Virus record (IMG/VR): IMGVR_UViG_2690315815_000009
Direction: 5' to 3' (one strand)
Source: a virus
Lineage: Duplodnaviria > Heunggongvirae > Uroviricota > Caudoviricetes
DNA: 43,512 nt
Within the stretch, counting starts at the first letter, position 1; each line of letters starts with the position of its first letter. The notes below the pieces were generated by a model. It ran no database searches, was not told the DNA's origin, and saw nothing but the letters and a program-made list of their open reading frames with translations. Below, piece after piece: positions 5,936-31,169 of this stretch. The position numbers and the translations under genes were made by a program.

Positions 5936-6321
5936 TTTATTCCTTCTCTATTTTCACCAATTCGCGTCGCTATTGCTTCTTTAAGCTCGGCCAAATTTTC
6001 GATTTGCGCGTCAGATGCGGTTCCGGCATCTACTGCACACTGAATTGAGAATGCCTCAATTGACAGATCGCCAACAGTCCGTAATGTAGTCTGGAGTTTT
6101 TGCGTCTGCTCTTTTTTTACAAATTTAGAAATGCTCCCATAATCCCCGCTCAGCGCTCTTTCATATAAAACCCTACCGTGTTCCTCGCAATCATTTTTCA
6201 TTGCGGTGAATGGAATGTCGTTTCCAATCCCGTCAATATCGCAAATAATATTTATAGATAACCCATGCTCGTCATTAAAAACAGGGTTTGTTATTTTTCT
6301 AAATGAATCAACGCTTATCAT
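5932..6321 (-). CDS. Putative tail fibre assembly or accessory protein
   Basis: 129 aa, start overlapping the stop of the fibre gene; positional inference only. Confidence 0.35.
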   Translation of the reverse strand: MISVDSFRKITNPVFNDEHGLSINIICDIDGIGNDIPFTAMKNDCEEHGRVLYERALSGDYGSISKFVKKEQTQKLQTTLRTVGDLSIEAFSIQCAVDAGTASDAQIENLAELKEAIATRIGENREGIK

Positions 6322-7505
6322 TACGCAATCCTAATAGCTAAAAAACAGGCAGTCCCAATATCACCGACTCCACCGGGTGAATACGCCATGGCTCGCCATG
6401 AGCCAATAAGTGGTGTGTCATAAAATGGTTTTGTGGCAATATCCGTGTTATATGAACCGGTATTATTTATACTAGCGTAATATAAATCCCCTCCAGCCCA
6501 TATGGAGCCCGGGAGTATTTGTGGTGCATGATTAATAGCGACAAGCGCATAAGTACCAACCGCGCCAACAACACCTATTTCCGGTGATGGGTCCGGTGAA
6601 AGACTTATATCTATGTTGCCATTTTCATCCGGCGACTCCCCGTTAATCGTTTTAACCGGTTTAAGATTAGCCTCATTCCAGTATTTATACGTCTGCCCGC
6701 CGCACAGTAACACCAGGCCATCATAGTGAACTCCGCGTAATCTATAAAAAACCTTCTGATTGTTTTCTCCACGGGTCGAAAAATCTAAATAATCGCCCGA
6801 CACATCTGATAAACCAGCAAATGAAAACAACGTCAAATCAGTGCCCGGTTTGTTTATATTTATTTGTTTTTTAGAGGATAAAACGTCTTCAAAAATCACA
6901 TCATCTTTAAAAGTATTTGGATGAGTAAATGCATTACCCTTATCTCTATATGCAACGTCCCCATCTATACCAATATTTTTCCGCGCAGCCTGCTGAGCAG
7001 TTTCACCATTTGCGGGAATTTCAGATAAGTTTTTACTTATCTGCAAATATTTTTTGTCAGCTTCCTCGGGAGTTACGTAGTTGTCATATACTACAACATT
7101 AACCGTAGATGTGCTGGACACCGCGAGTGTGTATTTATACGTGATTGAAATCAGCGCACCGTTGCTGTCCGTAGGTTTTAAAATGTCCGGCGAGCGCGCC
7201 ACAGAGTACAGCTCGCCTTTATCTGTTAATATCCCCACCTCACGGATAGTATAGCCCCCAGTGTCTGGCGGTACGTAAAGTGTAAAGATAACCTGGTTAC
7301 CGCTATTTTCTGCGGATTTAATATCCCCACGATACGTCTCGTGAATTAATGCAGTTCGTGCCGGGTCCGGTGTTACGTCGTCGTTTCCGTTTGCGTCGCC
7401 AATAACGAATTTATTCAGCACCACGGGTACACCCGATGCCAGCGCAGCGGCTTCAAGTTGTGCGCCACGGTCTGTCAGTACTGCGTAAATTTTATTTTCA
7501 GCCAT
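6321..7505 (-). CDS. Tail fibre protein (P2 gpH-like)
   Basis: 394 aa downstream of gpI; Gly/Ser/Thr/Asn-rich C-terminal half typical of receptor-binding fibres. Confidence 0.6.
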   Translation of the reverse strand: MAENKIYAVLTDRGAQLEAAALASGVPVVLNKFVIGDANGNDDVTPDPARTALIHETYRGDIKSAENSGNQVIFTLYVPPDTGGYTIREVGILTDKGELYSVARSPDILKPTDSNGALISITYKYTLAVSSTSTVNVVVYDNYVTPEEADKKYLQISKNLSEIPANGETAQQAARKNIGIDGDVAYRDKGNAFTHPNTFKDDVIFEDVLSSKKQININKPGTDLTLFSFAGLSDVSGDYLDFSTRGENNQKVFYRLRGVHYDGLVLLCGGQTYKYWNEANLKPVKTINGESPDENGNIDISLSPDPSPEIGVVGAVGTYALVAINHAPQILPGSIWAGGDLYYASINNTGSYNTDIATKPFYDTPLIGSWRAMAYSPGGVGDIGTACFLAIRIA

Positions 7506-9433: not shown

Positions 9434-10305
9434 ATATGAGTGTGTCCGTTATACGTTGTGCGGACTTCAGTTATTGTGCCTTGTCGGTCCTGCACCTCTT
9501 GCCCTGCTAACACACTACCGCGAGTTGTGATATTACCTGTTCCACCGTTATCTCCAGTGACAGAAATATCGTTACGGAATGTCGCTAATTTATCTACTAC
9601 TAATGTCTCGGTAATATGCGTTGGACCAGCTAGTGTTATACCACCCGGAGCCCACGCGCTGATTGTTTGAGCTGTCAGCGATATTCTGTTCGCAGCAGTA
9701 ACACTAACAGAACTCGTTGCTATAACGTTCACTAAATCAGCATGTGCGTTAATTGTATCTGTCGCTGTGACATTAATAATATCAGCGTCTGCGTTAATTA
9801 ATTTCCCACCATGGATATTAACTACATTTTCGCTATTAATAGTAACATCTGCGCGTCCAAATATTTCTATTTCAGACTCACCGAGTATTTTTACCACGCC
9901 GTCCGGTACGCCCTGCCATGTCAGAGTGTGATTTTTTGTGTTATACGTCATCGTAGCCCCGTCACAGTATGCAGTGACATGATCATGGGGGTCATTGCTT
10001 GGCGGAGCTTTGTCGTCAATGTGCAGCCCGAGCATAACTACACCGTTCCGCGTATCCCCACCCTCAGAAACAACAGTAACGGGATCGCCCACTGATGGTG
10101 CGCTCCAGTCGACGCGTTCTGAGGTGGCGTGAGTAAACCACTGCAGCCAGCCTGACTGGTGTTCGCCACCAAATGAGACTCGGCAGCGTGGAGGATTCAT
10201 TTTAACTGCAGCTATCGTGCCGCGTTTAACTGCGTCACGCAGCCTGCGCGCGTTCTCCGCTGCAGCATATTCATCGTCCGATTGGGCCATAATAGTCGCC
10301 CTCAT
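9388..10305 (-). CDS. Baseplate assembly protein gpV (central spike / hub)
   Basis: 305 aa upstream of W; repetitive beta-helix-like middle region (INVTATDTINAHADLVNVIATSSVSVTA) and C-terminal HTH..C..G motif typical of P2 V-type spikes. Confidence 0.7.
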   Translation of the reverse strand: MRATIMAQSDDEYAAAENARRLRDAVKRGTIAAVKMNPPRCRVSFGGEHQSGWLQWFTHATSERVDWSAPSVGDPVTVVSEGGDTRNGVVMLGLHIDDKAPPSNDPHDHVTAYCDGATMTYNTKNHTLTWQGVPDGVVKILGESEIEIFGRADVTINSENVVNIHGGKLINADADIINVTATDTINAHADLVNVIATSSVSVTAANRISLTAQTISAWAPGGITLAGPTHITETLVVDKLATFRNDISVTGDNGGTGNITTRGSVLAGQEVQDRQGTITEVRTTYNGHTHICPDGETQQPNQPMA

Positions 10306-26793: not shown

Positions 26794-27282
26794 ATGGCTA
26801 CCAACCCAAGAGAGCACGCCCGGCGAGTGCTGGACACGTTCTGGTGCGGGCGTGGTTTCCCTGTTGATCCAGCGAAAATTGCTCACGACATGGGATTAGA
26901 TGTTTTTATTACCGATCTTCCTGGGAAAGTTTCTGGCGCACTGATTAAACAAAAAGATCAAGATCCAGCGATCTTTCTAAACAGTGATGACAACAAAGTT
27001 CGTCAACGTTTTTCATGTGGGCATGAGTTGGGGCATTACATCGCCCGGCAAGCATCGCATAGCGATGAATATGAGTACGTTGATTTACGTGGCGAAACCG
27101 CAAGCGCCGGAACGCATCCTGATGAAATTTTTGCAAACAAGTTCGCAGCAGAACTTCTGATGCCGGTAGATGAGGTCAGAAAACTGCACGCTGACGGTCA
27201 ACCAAGTTATATAATGGCGCATTATTTTGGCGTATCTGACGATGCGATGACTTATCGTTTAAAGAACTTGAGGTTGGGGTAA
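26794..27282 (+). CDS. ImmA/IrrE-family metallo-endopeptidase (COG2856)
   Basis: 162 aa with HEXXH motif (CGHELGHYI) and downstream FANKFAAELLMP, characteristic of ImmA/IrrE; strong GGAGGA SD. Confidence 0.8.
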   Translation: MATNPREHARRVLDTFWCGRGFPVDPAKIAHDMGLDVFITDLPGKVSGALIKQKDQDPAIFLNSDDNKVRQRFSCGHELGHYIARQASHSDEYEYVDLRGETASAGTHPDEIFANKFAAELLMPVDEVRKLHADGQPSYIMAHYFGVSDDAMTYRLKNLRLG

Positions 27283-27291
27283 CGCTTTAAA

Positions 27292-27897
27292 ATGCCATCG
27301 GATGACGATTTTAACAGCCGTTTCAAACAGGAAGTAGCACGCAGACTGAAGGATTCCCTCAACCTACACCGTCAGTTAGCAGAAGAGGTTGAGCCGGAGG
27401 ACGATGAAACTCCGGTTCAGTCTCCTGACGAAGCTTCACCTCAGCCAAAGGTTTCGCACGCCCCCAAAAAAACGGCTGTCCGTATTCGCGGAATAGCCAG
27501 AAAAAGAGCTGCCGAAGCTCGCAAAATGGCTGTAGCTGCGTCTAGCAAAAGAATTCCAACTGCTACACCCTCTCAACAAGTCACCCGTACTGAGAGTAAA
27601 ATCTTGACCGAGTTCACATCTGTGAAACAGGTGAATTCACTTGATACCGAGCATGAGCGCAAACAACTCAACAACAAAGATTTTGAAGCAGAAATCGCTC
27701 TAAAAAAACGATACGGGAAATGGTTCCTGATTATCCTTGCTTTCCAACTTCTGATAATGAATGGTGTATTTATTGCCGACGGCGCAGGTAAGCTGGAATT
27801 TGAGGATTTAACACTACAGTTGTACATGGGCGGTACTTTGACAGAGGTATTCGGCCTCGTGCTGGTCGTGACAAAATACCTTTTTAAACGCAAGTAA
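27292..27897 (+). CDS. Membrane-anchored protein of unknown function, co-transcribed with the ImmA/IrrE peptidase
   Basis: 201 aa; basic, probably disordered N-terminal two-thirds, then two C-terminal hydrophobic helices (WFLIILAFQLLIMNGVFIA, TLTEVFGLVLVVTKYLF); starts 10 nt after the ImmA stop. Confidence 0.55.
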   Translation: MPSDDDFNSRFKQEVARRLKDSLNLHRQLAEEVEPEDDETPVQSPDEASPQPKVSHAPKKTAVRIRGIARKRAAEARKMAVAASSKRIPTATPSQQVTRTESKILTEFTSVKQVNSLDTEHERKQLNNKDFEAEIALKKRYGKWFLIILAFQLLIMNGVFIADGAGKLEFEDLTLQLYMGGTLTEVFGLVLVVTKYLFKRK

Positions 27898-27921
27898 CTC
27901 TCTCGGTCCAACAGTCTTTCG

Positions 27922-27943
27922 AAGGCCCTGATCAAAGGGCCTT
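27922..27943 (+). terminator. Terminator-like hairpin after the ImmA/membrane-protein operon
   Basis: AAGGCCCT-GATCA-AGGGCCTT (8-bp stem) 25 nt after the stop codon. Confidence 0.4.
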
Positions 27944-28142
27944 GATAAATTAGCAGTGCGTTGAAAACAGATAGTTATTCCCATCAGTTCCAACGTAATA
28001 CACATCAAAAAAATCACCATTCTTTTGCTCTAACGTCAACACCTACCCTTAAAAAAATAATTCTCCAAGAATGAGAAAGTTATTGTGTGTATTAGATAAG
28101 ATATGAGCTGACACATCTATGGCGTGGAGCCAAATTTAATAT

Positions 28143-28174
28143 GACAGTCCGCTCTGTGCCATAAGCGGACTGTC
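28143..28174 (-). terminator. Hairpin downstream of the 28360..29058 gene (10-bp perfect stem)
   Basis: GACAGTCCGC...GCGGACTGTC inverted repeat; on the minus strand it is followed by an A/U-rich tract. Confidence 0.3.
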
Positions 28175-28359
28175 AATAAACAGATTCACTTGTAAATCTT
28201 GAAGCTATACATATTTACTTTCAATGATAAATAAAAGAACTATCCAAAAATCACTGAGAGCATATTTTAACTAACCCTCCGCTACTATTAACATAAATTT
28301 CACCCAACCATAATTAAATTGATACATATAGCAACTTACCTTGATACGAATCATCTGGG

Positions 28360-29058
28360 TTATATTTTTCCATATTTTTTTCCGTCAAATCGAATCATGC
28401 CAGGATCAAGAAAATTAATTAAATCGATTAACGCGTGCTGTATTCTGATTAGCCTTTCTTTATAAATTCCGATATCTCTTGTCATATTTATCACTTCATT
28501 GTTTAAATCTAAAAAAAATGGCTCATTGATAAAGCAATTTTCCTTTGTGAAACTGCCGTAACCTATGCAATCAAATCCAGTATCTGTTGATATCAGCATC
28601 TTTTCTGCAATAGCTCTCTGCTCTCCTATGAAAAACATAAAATACTGACCAAAGACGTCTGTTTGGATTAATGAGTTAATATTGTTCTGTAATCTAATAA
28701 ACTCCCTCATTTTTTTATTTTTTTCTAGGCTAAGGTATTGAATGTCTATGCGGGCAGCTTCTGTCCATGCAAAAAACTGGGAAAAAAGAAAAACAGTATT
28801 GTTGATAACATAATCTTGTTGGCGCTTATTCCCATTATGATAAAACTCTTCAATGAACCCCAATTCTAATATATTATAAATACGGCTTTGTAAGTCTGAA
28901 GCTGAGCGAATTAACGGTTCAATATAGTACTGATGTTTTCTCCTTACATCCAGTGATTCATTGAGCTTGTTTATTCTATTCTGATTATAAGTAGATATAG
29001 CAATAGAGATTATAGCTATTGCACCACTAATAAAGCTTGAAATTAATGCCGTACCCAT
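28360..29058 (-). CDS. Membrane-anchored protein of unknown function in a very AT-rich island
   Basis: 232 aa with one N-terminal TM helix (LISSFISGAIAIISIAIS) and an Asn/Ile/Lys-rich soluble domain; codon usage and GC content far below the phage backbone. Confidence 0.5.
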   Translation of the reverse strand: MGTALISSFISGAIAIISIAISTYNQNRINKLNESLDVRRKHQYYIEPLIRSASDLQSRIYNILELGFIEEFYHNGNKRQQDYVINNTVFLFSQFFAWTEAARIDIQYLSLEKNKKMREFIRLQNNINSLIQTDVFGQYFMFFIGEQRAIAEKMLISTDTGFDCIGYGSFTKENCFINEPFFLDLNNEVINMTRDIGIYKERLIRIQHALIDLINFLDPGMIRFDGKKYGKI

Positions 29059-30245
29059 CTAAAAGTCCTTTGATTCTTGCTTGGTTAACAAAATGACATA
29101 ATTTTATTTAATGCCATAACAACTTAACAATATATCATAATATGATTATTATGGTGTAGCTTGTCGCATCTACGCTCCATTACAAACAGATGTAAGATAT
29201 AACCTATATGTTTTAGCCAGCAAATTCGAAAGCATTCAAAGTAGTCTCATCGAACTCTCGAAACCCTATGTCTTCGGGTATAAAATATTTAAATCCATTT
29301 GCATAATATCGACTCATGTTTATTATATTCTCCCCATTCACCATTAAGATTTGACATTATTTTCAACAATCGGTTATTGCAAGATTGAAATATATTTTTA
29401 CTTGACACAATATTCCATGTAGCCCAGCGATTCGACTTACCCCCAACTATACGGACAATCTAAATTAAATCGATGATTTTTTGATACATTCTCCTCTCTC
29501 CATTACTTTATGTTTTTGTTCCCCAAAAATACCTTGCTCTCTAAAAAATAATTGTTCTTTAAGTTCAAAATCGAGATCTACATGAGCGTTAGATACAAAG
29601 CTAATATGTTGAAATGTCTTTCCCCCCCCATAACGGCATTGTTATCTAAACTATGTTACACAAATATAATATTACCCTTTCAACGTAATCCAAGAATAAG
29701 ATTAATGCCATTATATATATCATAAATATGATATTTTGTATATTTTTATCATTTAGCCTTGATTGTACTAGGTGTACTCTCAACGAAGTAGGGAAAGTCT
29801 GTTCCTCGCTCACAGCTGCCCTTCAGTAAGCGAAAAAATGCCTACTCGGTGCCATATACAGCCATTGTTATTAACAGCAGGGAATAATTCAAAACTGAAA
29901 TTAAATATCTACCTTTTACAGTAGAAATAGTTCCTCCAGGACACTATCCATTGCCGGGCACAATCACTCGGGGTATAACGATATAAAATATGTTCATGAT
30001 AGTGCAGGTTCGTATATTAAGTTCAGCAGCGAAAACATGCCTTACAGGTTTCCGGTTTTGGGAGCGTCGTTACAGGATCCTGCGCATACCGTTCCCATCT
30101 GTTGAATTAAAGGTTTCACAGCCTTTGCCGATATCACCTTTTACCTTACCTGTGATGCGTTCAGTGCTCAGCGTTGTTTACTGTAGCTCTCGGGACTGAT
30201 TACAGACCGCGTCTTAAAAACCAATCCTTACTCTAAAGGGAATTC

Positions 30246-31169
30246 ATGAGATTAAAATACTCAGTACTCTTACTCGCCATTGCCCTTACAGGCTGTGATA
30301 ACAAAAAAGATGAGATCGGTTGTTCTTCGGAAATAACCCAGTCAGCTCTCATGGATTTATTAAAAAAATCTGCTTATGAAGGACTCTCTGAACAGGTCGA
30401 TAAATACCCTGATGTCACTAATCAGACCAAACGAAGCACACTGGACAAGATCAAACTAGCCATCTCTGAGATCTCCACAACATCAAGTGACACGGGCAGC
30501 ACAATGAAAACTTGTGAAGGGACCGTGACGATGACTCTATCTGCGAACGAGTACGTCCAGCTTTCAGATGCTTACAGAAAGAATTTTAATCGTAATCTCG
30601 ATAAGCAAATGGAAAGCCTGTTTTTGGAGAACAACGCAAACGCCTTTTCAAAACGTATCACCTACACCGTGCAGGCGACCGACGATCAGAAAAACGTTTT
30701 TGTAAAAACCTCTACTGATAATCCGATATCAGTGGGCGCCGCTTTACTGACATCGCTTTCCATTATCACCCCGATCGTTGAGCAGCAGAAAATCCAGCAG
30801 GCTAAGGATGCCCAACAGAGTCAAATTGAAGCGGAACAACAGGTGCAACTCAGGGCGCAAGAACAGGCTAAGTATGAGGCGGAGAAGCAAATAGAGAGAC
30901 AGGCACAACTTCAGCCGCAAAAAGCTGACAACCTTGATCAGTCCCGAATGGCATTTGCGAATGCCGACTCTGATTTGAGTACCGTCTGGAGCAAGTTAAC
31001 CCCGGCGAAGAAAAAAGATTTGCTGCCTTCTCAGCGTCAGTGGATCAAAACTAAGGATGCTATGTGCGGTAAAGTTTCAATGCAGGGAACAGATGCTGAA
31101 GTCAAGAAAATGGTCGACTGCCAGACGCAAATGACCCTTTCAAGAATCGCTTTCCTCAGAAACCAATAA
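30246..31169 (+). CDS. Lipoprotein with C-terminal DUF1311 (LprI-like) domain
   Basis: 307 aa; signal peptide with lipobox (LTGC), Gln-rich coiled-coil segment, C-terminal ...QRQWIKTKDAMC... motif resembling DUF1311. Confidence 0.6.
   Translation: MRLKYSVLLLAIALTGCDNKKDEIGCSSEITQSALMDLLKKSAYEGLSEQVDKYPDVTNQTKRSTLDKIKLAISEISTTSSDTGSTMKTCEGTVTMTLSANEYVQLSDAYRKNFNRNLDKQMESLFLENNANAFSKRITYTVQATDDQKNVFVKTSTDNPISVGAALLTSLSIITPIVEQQKIQQAKDAQQSQIEAEQQVQLRAQEQAKYEAEKQIERQAQLQPQKADNLDQSRMAFANADSDLSTVWSKLTPAKKKDLLPSQRQWIKTKDAMCGKVSMQGTDAEVKKMVDCQTQMTLSRIAFLRNQ

Follow-up and report, generated by a model that had tools for sequence, protein, structure and literature searches.

An AT-rich cargo cassette in a lambdoid prophage of Escherichia coli ST131 carries a live membrane-protein gene, distantly related to transmembrane partners of reverse transcriptases, and a decayed, putatively nuclease-like gene

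Results

A cargo cassette with one live and one dead gene

The IMG/VR virus record IMGVR_UViG_2690315815_000009 (Caudoviricetes), analysed here over its full length of 43,512 nt and from now on referred to as the window, contains an AT-rich stretch of 1.73 kb at positions 28088..29816 that, when compared with its relatives by blastn, turned out to be a shared cargo cassette with both of its genes on the minus strand. One of these genes (28360..29058) is live and encodes a 232-aa protein, predicted to pass the inner membrane once and belonging to an RTasTM-like family, while the other (29213..29631) is a pseudogene of a ~150-aa family that is probably PD-(D/E)XK-like. The explanation proposed is that of a horizontally exchanged cargo cassette (moron) in a slot of a lambdoid prophage of Escherichia coli sequence type 131 (ST131). 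It originally contained two genes on the same strand, each behind a copy of one promoter/operator-like element, of which the first, coding for the putative nuclease-like protein, died and the 232-aa gene survived. The anatomy, i.e. the cassette, the pseudogene and the protein family, is well supported and is put forward with high confidence; the explanation as a whole, including the role suggested below for the membrane protein, is judged probable with appreciable room for doubt.

The GC content is 0.322 for 28088-29816 and 0.342 for the larger region 27950-30245, compared to 0.480 for the whole window, and when windows across the whole stretch were examined 28088-29816 was the lowest-GC stretch of its length, ~3.4 standard deviations under the mean, the next-lowest non-overlapping window having a GC content of 0.419. 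The sharp drop in composition reported in the initial annotation, which was made from the sequence alone, is therefore real (32% GC against 48% for the window), and so high an AT content would be expected of xenogeneic DNA silenced by H-NS, as suggested in that annotation. The limits given there, 27950-30245, are too wide; the extent of the blastn matches to relatives places the island at 28088-29816.

Distribution and mobility of the cassette

The region is identical in E. coli ST131 chromosomes (EC958, JJ1886 and ~400 others), where it lies inside a lambdoid prophage, and in the window the slot is likewise part of a lambdoid prophage with a pair of genes for an ImmA-type and a 201-aa protein on one side and an LprI gene on the other. 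A search with blastn also revealed 86% identity over the whole of 28088-29816 to the Z regions of P2-like prophages (contigs L002 and L003), in which the copies are placed between the tail-fibre assembly gene (G) and the sheath gene (FI) (L002 and L019). The same cassette is carried by the 1,988 bp GenBank entry AJ512683, described as 'P2-EC58 proviral Z-region, ORF1' with the product 'putative lysogenic protein', and this product (CAD54907) shows 92.9% protein identity to the window protein over 91% of the query. A third lineage, ~74% identical over 28147-29805 (contigs L013 and L015), is found in a genomic island beside AlpA- and DUF4238-type genes.

Sibling lambdoid prophages share the backbone of the window prophage, with an identical ImmA protein, LprI, ORF6N and DnaB. 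In two of them (L112 and L113, 2983-4775) the same slot is occupied by three other minus-strand genes, encoding a 134-aa hypothetical protein, a 221-aa protein of the GIY-YIG nuclease family and a 65-aa hypothetical protein. Since the same cassette occurs elsewhere and other cargo is found in the sibling slot, the island is best described as a cassette of mobile cargo occupying a slot whose content is exchangeable. The horizontally acquired cargo suspected in the initial annotation is thus supported by three kinds of location: the P2-like Z slot, a genomic island and a slot filled with alternative cargo in sibling prophages.

When analysing the borders, the similarity to L003 was found to stop at position 1762 of that contig, inside the annotated repeat 1743-1833 (the 'right inverted repeat' of AJ512683). 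The right junction of the cassette, at ~29812-29816, accordingly cuts the right inverted-repeat hairpin, the left hairpin (28142-28175) being present, and the 37-nt inverted pair of P2 type was not recovered in the window. Compared with the Z-region cargo of P2-EC58, the window copy is alike in DNA sequence (86% over 1.73 kb), in its AT-richness, in the terminator hairpin and in the dead upstream gene, and differs in being located in a lambdoid prophage and not between G and FI and in having a truncated right inverted repeat. A homology of the 232-aa protein to Fun(Z) of P2 was considered and found unsupported, as a tblastn search against 50,697 phage records gave only the P2-EC58 fragment AJ512683. 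In the survey of Rousset et al. 2022 the P2 hotspot covered was gpA-gpQ and not the Z slot (PMC9122126).

For some twenty years GenBank has listed the cassette as an unnamed 'lysogenic' open reading frame (ORF), and the uninformative name 'lysogenic' now found in several databases seems to go back to the AJ512683 entry. This name reflects position and not a tested function.

Two further genes were observed in the genomic-island lineage. In L013 the cassette is followed by a gene on the minus strand (6076-7107) for a protein of 343 aa that has hydrophobic stretches and weakly matches the PADLOC model LeoBC (E=3e-4), and from position 10069 onward of the same contig a DUF4238 gene is located nearby; the DUF4238 domain has been validated as a single-gene anti-T7 system (PMC9122126).

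The live gene and its protein family

The product of the live gene is deposited in RefSeq as WP_000536231.1 and named either 'hypothetical' or 'lysogenic protein'. As stated in the initial annotation, it is a 232-aa protein encoded on the minus strand with one N-terminal transmembrane (TM) helix and no recognised domain. The sole hydrophobic segment covers approximately residues 3-24 and is followed by a stretch rich in K/R, so that, according to the positive-inside rule, the remaining ~200 residues are predicted to be cytoplasmic. An AF2 model of the protein (pLDDT, the predicted local distance difference test, 87.8) consists of a helical domain for which no specific fold match was obtained.

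Comparisons with three relatives of growing distance gave dN/dS values of 0.25, 0.14 and 0.13, and the gene is intact in ~400 genomes of ST131 type. Judged by these substitution ratios, the gene is alive and under purifying selection.

The family comprises 290 proteins in a word-indexed search and 1,930 cluster representatives when clustered at 50%. With 270 matches in ~186,000 species genomes it is rare, and its members are distributed over Acidobacteriota, Cyanobacteria, Proteobacteria, Actinomycetota, Bacteroidota and Firmicutes. An alignment of the family revealed 23 invariant residues, found in the segments EPL..DLQSR..N, AQ[FY]FAWTE..R..IQ, F.GEQRAIGE and LQ.AL.DL..FLDP. Neither Pfam nor NCBIfam holds a model for the family and PHROGs has an uncharacterised one. 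The initial annotation had set a match to a known family against its own reading of the protein; such a match exists in weak form, to the PHROG just mentioned and, distantly, to a PADLOC model. The fusion partners of long family members, consisting of weak NAL1_N matches and one GerE domain, were uninformative, and no paper naming the 232-aa protein was found in the literature.

Relation to transmembrane partners of reverse transcriptases

The distant PADLOC model is PDLC03799, named RTasTM, which was matched by the window protein (E=1.8e-5) over residues 71-204. All 65 of the aligned family members match this model (best 9.8e-11) and 52 of the 65 match a second RTasTM model, PDLC03013, while a weak match to the Drt1b model was obtained for a single one of the 65. 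In the literature, a protein with one TM segment is encoded downstream of some of the genes for UG1 (DRT1, DRT denoting defence-associated reverse transcriptase) and UG5-large fusions of reverse transcriptase (RT) and nitrilase (PMC9226505). RTasTM and Drt1b, in class 3 of the UG/DRT systems, correspond to clusters 85 and 1858 of Mestre et al. 2022 (PMC9226505), and an 'RT-nitrilase + 1TM' system from a P4 hotspot was validated by Rousset et al. 2022 (PMC9122126). Deletion of the TM component is reported to compromise UG1 defence, whereas one UG5-large system reportedly does without it (PMC13436386). A search of the literature for the term 'RTasTM' in this sense gave matches to unrelated clinical texts only.

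The two groups resemble each other in length (229 positions in the model, 232 aa in the window protein), in the single N-terminal TM helix, in a homology that extends across the whole family and in being carried on phage and satellite hotspots in E. coli. They differ in the partner, as an RT-nitrilase gene accompanies the RTasTM proteins and none adjoins the 232-aa gene in the window or at the loci examined, where the large upstream genes instead encode a helicase-restriction endonuclease (REase), a type I R subunit or metabolic enzymes. The match of the window protein being distant and partial, we regard the family as a sister of RTasTM and not as the same family, and the sequence match suggests relatedness at the superfamily level only.

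Defence or a general membrane function

The mechanism proposed for the surviving gene starts with transcription from its own promoter in the lysogen, a step that H-NS may dampen in view of the high AT content. The protein would be anchored in the inner membrane by its N-terminal helix with the conserved helical domain facing the cytoplasm, and the family would work without an RT. In the lysogen it would, as a stand-alone membrane effector, limit infection by other phages: the cytoplasmic domain may sense an infection cue, upon which the TM segment would either cause abortive infection by perturbing the membrane or prevent entry. Membrane perturbation or an entry block is suggested by analogy with the TM partners of DRT systems and with other membrane effectors.

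RexB of lambda and SieA of P22 are examples of membrane-located exclusion or abortive-infection proteins. With prophage morons and the genes of such proteins the 232-aa gene shares the arrangement as a single AT-rich gene in opposite orientation between backbone genes, with a promoter-like sequence and a terminator of its own, as well as a variable slot and a product predicted to reside in the inner membrane. Searches with the 232-aa protein gave no sequence or fold similarity to proteins of this kind.

The genomic contexts of the family are of several kinds. All enterobacterial copies examined are located on mobile elements, either in a prophage slot or in a genomic island. In Providencia the gene occupies the slot of a P2-like prophage, and in Lonsdalea it neighbours the integrase gene of a 186-like prophage in which an AAA_15/DUF4435 (PARIS-like) pair is present as well. 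A copy in a metagenome-assembled genome (MAG) of Xanthomonadaceae/Lysobacteraceae adjoins SIR2-HerA, and at a few loci the adjacent gene codes for a helicase-REase or for a subunit of a type I restriction system. Among 150 immediate neighbours the matches to defence models comprised MADS components (3), DrmC (2) and single matches to type I REase, HerA, JukAB, Mokosh and PADLOC candidates.

Several results weigh against a defence role, or against its link to the RT systems. The match of the window protein to PDLC03799 is itself weak and covers only part of the protein; no RT is located near the gene in the window neighbourhood or in contexts L004-L015, and no RT or DRT model was among the frequent matches of the 150 neighbours (~70 loci), of which a minority matched defence models at all. 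Outside the enterobacteria the gene is often a singleton among core genes (YchF, UvrC, HemB), and at ~7 of the 80 reference loci it is embedded in an operon for acyl-CoA carboxylase (Carboxyl_trans, Amidohydro_3, biotin carboxylase). Furthermore, no experimental or phenotype data for WP_000536231, WP_087889723 or CAD54907 were found in the literature.

The carboxylase-operon arrangement was seen at L066, L069, L072, L076, L083, L089 and L094, in MAGs labelled Heliomicrobium, Blastocatellia, Thermoanaerobaculia and Acidobacteria. At these loci the gene lies between the amidohydrolase/carboxyltransferase and biotin carboxylase genes with overlaps of a few bases, an unexpected housekeeping context.

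The contexts outside the enterobacteria, to which a branched-chain amino acid permease can be added as neighbour, together with the low number of defence-model matches and the broad and strongly conserved spread of the family across phyla, speak for a general membrane role in stress, envelope or metabolic functions, the gene merely hitch-hiking on phages in enterobacteria. Such a role is possible, if on the unlikely side. It accounts less well for the exclusive placement of the enterobacterial copies examined in prophage slots and genomic islands, for a gene strongly AT-rich relative to its host, for the rarity of the family, for the homology of the entire family to a DRT-associated TM protein and for those loci where SIR2-HerA, type I R subunit, MADS, DrmC, JukAB or Mokosh genes are adjoining.

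A role of the 232-aa protein in superinfection exclusion or abortive infection, as suggested in the initial annotation, is plausible from its sequence and location. As no RT is adjacent, the wider survey is mixed with housekeeping contexts and few neighbours match defence models, an anti-phage function is put forward tentatively, at somewhat less than an even chance. The broader proposal, that this RT-independent family of ~1,900 clusters (50% identity, no Pfam model) would constitute a stand-alone single-gene anti-phage system in P2 Z and lambdoid slots, ST131 included, is more doubtful.

The ORF-free DNA contains a dead gene

The initial annotation described the DNA upstream of the 232-aa gene as free of ORFs. 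When this region was aligned with relatives by tblastn and at the nucleotide level to an intact gene, a pseudogene was identified at 29213..29631 on the minus strand. An intact relative (P0269) aligns to 29623-29231 with E=3.7e-19 (tblastn), and in the third lineage gene callers give two small ORFs on the same strand upstream of the membrane gene, the second of which is a member of the same family. The intact family has 415 homologues (58-82% identity), nearly all of ~150 aa, in Yersinia, E. coli, Vibrio, Shewanella, Nitrosomonas and others. Prompted by the RTasTM match, an RT remnant was also considered as the origin of this DNA and rejected, as it aligns to the ~150-aa nuclease-like family instead.

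The lesions of the window copy consist of an expansion of a G-tract directly after the ATG at 29631, causing a frameshift, and of deletions of 2, 11, 26, 1, 2 and 1 nt, in addition to the substitutions D60N and E71G in the putative catalytic motif. The six deletions are common to the window and P2-EC58, which places the death of the gene before the separation of these two copies, and in the third lineage a single independent deletion of 1 nt was present in each of three separate assemblies. Upstream of the live gene the substitutions are distributed over the codon positions as 43/40/50, i.e. without periodicity, compared to 16/6/20 in the live ORF, and between the window and P2-EC58 21% of the sites in the pseudogene differ, with a pS of 0.146 in the adjacent live gene. 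Going by these counts, the pseudogene appears to diverge at or above the neutral rate. In strain 1162T7 an IS1 element is inserted within the pseudogene with a target duplication of 8 bp (29474-29481). An IS1 element was also noted somewhere in 27900-30300 in strains S9, R10 and R13.

The ORF-free appearance of ~0.4 kb is thus explained by a decayed gene and not by DNA that never was coding. The possible ORF of 34 codons on the minus strand proposed in the initial annotation exists as part of an ORF of 43 codons (29213..29344), and is, by alignment, the C-terminal remnant of the dead nuclease-like gene. The pseudogene makes the non-coding part of the cassette ordinary, the rest of it being probable promoter and spacer sequence and a terminator hairpin.

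The dead gene probably coded for a PD-(D/E)XK-like protein

To address what the dead gene once encoded, its intact relatives were analysed. An alignment of 41 of them showed that D60 and the sequence E71-C72-K73 are invariant. In the AF2 model of P0269 (pLDDT 90.5) helices (H) and strands (E) were predicted at H18-34, E41-50, E53-63, E68-73, H85-100 and E106-112, in the order alpha-beta-beta-beta-alpha-beta with D60 at the end of strand 2 and ECK in strand 3, which is the canonical core of the PD-(D/E)XK proteins. Weak matches to the PADLOC model of an Argonaute-associated REase (Aga_Helical-REase, E=0.012-0.029) and, for the ORF of the third lineage, to phrog_36426 were also obtained.

Profile and sequence searches count against this assignment, as the intact relatives have no match in Pfam, NCBIfam or among PDB sequences (PDB E<=10) and an hhalign comparison with the PDDEXK_3 half was not significant (E=0.12). 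The profile searches having failed, the assignment to PD-(D/E)XK is an inference from the motif and the predicted topology and not a demonstrated membership, and the family is best called putatively PD-(D/E)XK nuclease-like. It resembles stand-alone PD-(D/E)XK proteins in the invariant D...E-x-K on consecutive predicted beta-strands, while the window copy differs from them in lacking both D60 and E71 and in being frameshifted.

Among the relatives, P0328 (161 aa, from an ENA contig of 616 nt) matches Pfam PDDEXK_3 with residues 5-82 (E=5.6e-26) and the ~150-aa family from VECKSH onward. It is either a natural or an assembly chimera, joined at the motif, and lends weaker support to the fold, but the contig it stems from is very short.

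In E. coli TA054 and a related assembly (L027 and L028, 5001-5486) the nuclease-like family is represented by an intact protein of 161 aa, at a locus where no membrane gene is present and where genes for a UvrD-type helicase, a protein with a Cap4_nuclease domain and a 550-aa unknown protein are located upstream. This locus looks like a defence-island context.

The homopolymer and the possibility of a small RNA or micro-ORF

Directly after the ATG of the pseudogene there is a homopolymer of eight C (G8 on the coding strand) at 29622..29629, the length of which is polymorphic (C7-C10). Among near-identical genomes of ST131 type C7, C9 and C10 were verified, and in a sample of 60 records ~46% had C8 and ~47% C9. 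This variation could be caused by slippage or by errors in long-read assemblies. With one more G (G9/C9) an ORF of 55 codons is opened, corresponding to phrog_7353 (E=3e-43); its product is an N-terminal fragment of only 55 aa, ended by the next deletion, and not a complete product.

The region 29059-29816 could be thought to encode a functional small RNA or micro-protein, for instance a phase-variable 55-aa peptide switched by G8/G9 and perhaps tuning the membrane gene. In favour of this, the tract follows an ATG, differs in length between otherwise near-identical genomes, opens with G9 an ORF that gene callers annotate and lies downstream of a promoter-like motif. Such a product is nevertheless very improbable, as the 55-aa product would be the N-terminal third of the nuclease-like protein without the D...ExK core, the P2-EC58 lineage has stops there and L013 lacks the homopolymer. 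The region moreover diverges in a seemingly neutral manner with no codon periodicity and tolerates an IS1 insertion, and homopolymer length differences are commonly long-read assembly errors. Phase variation via the G8 tract was consequently downgraded, the in-frame product being a stump. A structured non-coding RNA of the kind found in DRT2 and DRT9 was likewise set aside, since there was no Rfam match in the region, the divergence is neutral and indels are frequent. The small RNA or micro-ORFs considered in the initial annotation are thus unsupported, this DNA being mainly a pseudogene that diverges at a neutral or faster rate.

The two genes as independent cargos

The nuclease-like gene was found in 0 of 86 other loci with the membrane gene, and the membrane gene in 0 of 10 loci with an intact nuclease gene; lacking co-occurrence outside the cassette, the two are interpreted as independent cargos that became neighbours. 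That they instead formed an obligate two-gene system, the membrane gene now being a functionless relic, was rejected for this lack of co-occurrence and is very improbable, since, even though both genes are adjacent on the same strand behind a common upstream motif in all three cassette lineages and purifying selection acted on the L013 nuclease copy (dN/dS ~0.17) before one recent frameshift disrupted it, the pairing is restricted to this cassette and the membrane gene, intact in all those ST131-type genomes, stayed under purifying selection after the death of the nuclease gene (window against P2-EC58, dS 0.16, dN/dS 0.25).

Promoter-like sites, repeated motif and terminator

The spacer of 154 nt upstream of the live gene (29059..29212, minus strand) includes its probable own promoter. 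It contains the palindrome AATCATAYTATGAT, which alignments showed to be retained in all three cassette lineages, and a promoter-like sequence TTGTTA-18-TAAAAT at 29130-29101 on the minus strand. As a point against a promoter here, a promoter scan showed that promoter-like matches are no more frequent in the region than in shuffled sequences.

The AT-rich motif reported as repeated in the initial annotation was recovered in two copies, one upstream of each gene. The pattern TTAATGCCAT-N(0-20)-ATATCATAA-N(0-2)-TATGAT, which was derived from the two sites themselves, has exactly two sites, 29108-29146 (copy A, in the spacer) and 29702-29732 (copy B), and occurred in 0 of 100 shuffles. Copy B lies in the upstream region of the dead gene (29632..29816, minus strand), which also holds the right junction of the cassette.

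At the 3' edge of the cassette a terminator-like hairpin is located at 28142..28175 on the minus strand, with a perfect core of 10 bp, 13 pairs in all, a loop of 8 nt and a T-rich tail, so that the perfect 10-bp hairpin of the initial annotation (28143-28174) is extended. It scores as an intrinsic terminator for the minus strand, 185 nt past the stop codon of the 232-aa gene, is kept both in L003 and in L013, where its stem is shorter, and falls within the repeat_region 'left inverted repeat' of AJ512683. The 3' untranslated region of the 232-aa gene, between the stop codon and the hairpin, comprises 28176..28359 (minus strand). When sliding identity was calculated, 28148-28267 reached 92-95%, above its surroundings, and the 3' region gave a fold z of -3.2 with the terminator hairpin as the main contributor.

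Neighbouring prophage genes

The segment 29817..30245, which precedes the LprI-family lipoprotein gene (30246..31169, plus strand), has a GC content of 0.424, and genomes without the cassette match from 29845 onward together with the LprI gene. Due to this composition and this linkage it is placed outside the island. It had no match in the phage collection. The statement in the initial annotation that 29059-30245 holds no ORF of 60 aa or more has to be corrected for a mechanical ORF of 69 aa at 29990..30199 on the plus strand, which has no RefSeq annotation and is probably spurious.

The first 32 nt of the LprI gene (30246-30277, plus strand) agree in 32 of 32 positions with a spacer of the type I-E CRISPR system that is present in the chromosomes of other E. 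coli strains, in at least 9 records (e.g. NZ_CP033884.1). The sequence CAT at 30278-30280 adjoins the protospacer and reads as an ATG protospacer adjacent motif on the spacer strand, ATG being an accepted motif of the E. coli type I-E system. Native E. coli CRISPR arrays thus carry a spacer matching the prophage LprI gene.

On the other side of the cassette, two genes occupy 26794-27897 on the plus strand. The first encodes an ImmA/IrrE-type peptidase of 162 aa matching PADLOC capP (E=2.4e-25) and is followed after 9 nt by the gene for the 201-aa protein, which has a hydrophobic C-terminal segment (phrog_5346, unknown function). This pair is kept in the sibling prophages whatever the adjacent cargo, and may be a regulated module of its own.

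Discussion

Two aspects of the present findings can be regarded as moderately new: the recognition of a large, unnamed and RT-independent sister family of the DRT TM protein, of which the live gene is a member, and the finding of common cargo in the P2 Z slot and in a lambdoid slot. The cassette illustrates the turnover of prophage cargo slots, in that two unrelated single-gene cargos were joined and moved as a unit among lambdoid phages, P2-like phages and a genomic island, after which one of them decayed. For the scanning of phage genomes the lesson is that AT-rich, seemingly ORF-free DNA beside cargo genes often is a dead gene, soon recognised when relatives are compared.

The surviving gene is present in ~400 complete genomes of ST131 type, and the only known relatives of its family are the TM partners of RT-nitrilase systems. 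If the stand-alone defence proposal is true, the accessory TM protein of DRT systems would be an autonomous effector module that was recruited by RT systems and not the reverse. Should the 232-aa protein be protective alone, it would define a single-gene system not described before and help to explain the contribution of the TM component to DRT1 and UG5 systems; should it not be protective, the housekeeping contexts in Acidobacteriota and Cyanobacteria would point to a membrane function that has so far gone unrecognised.

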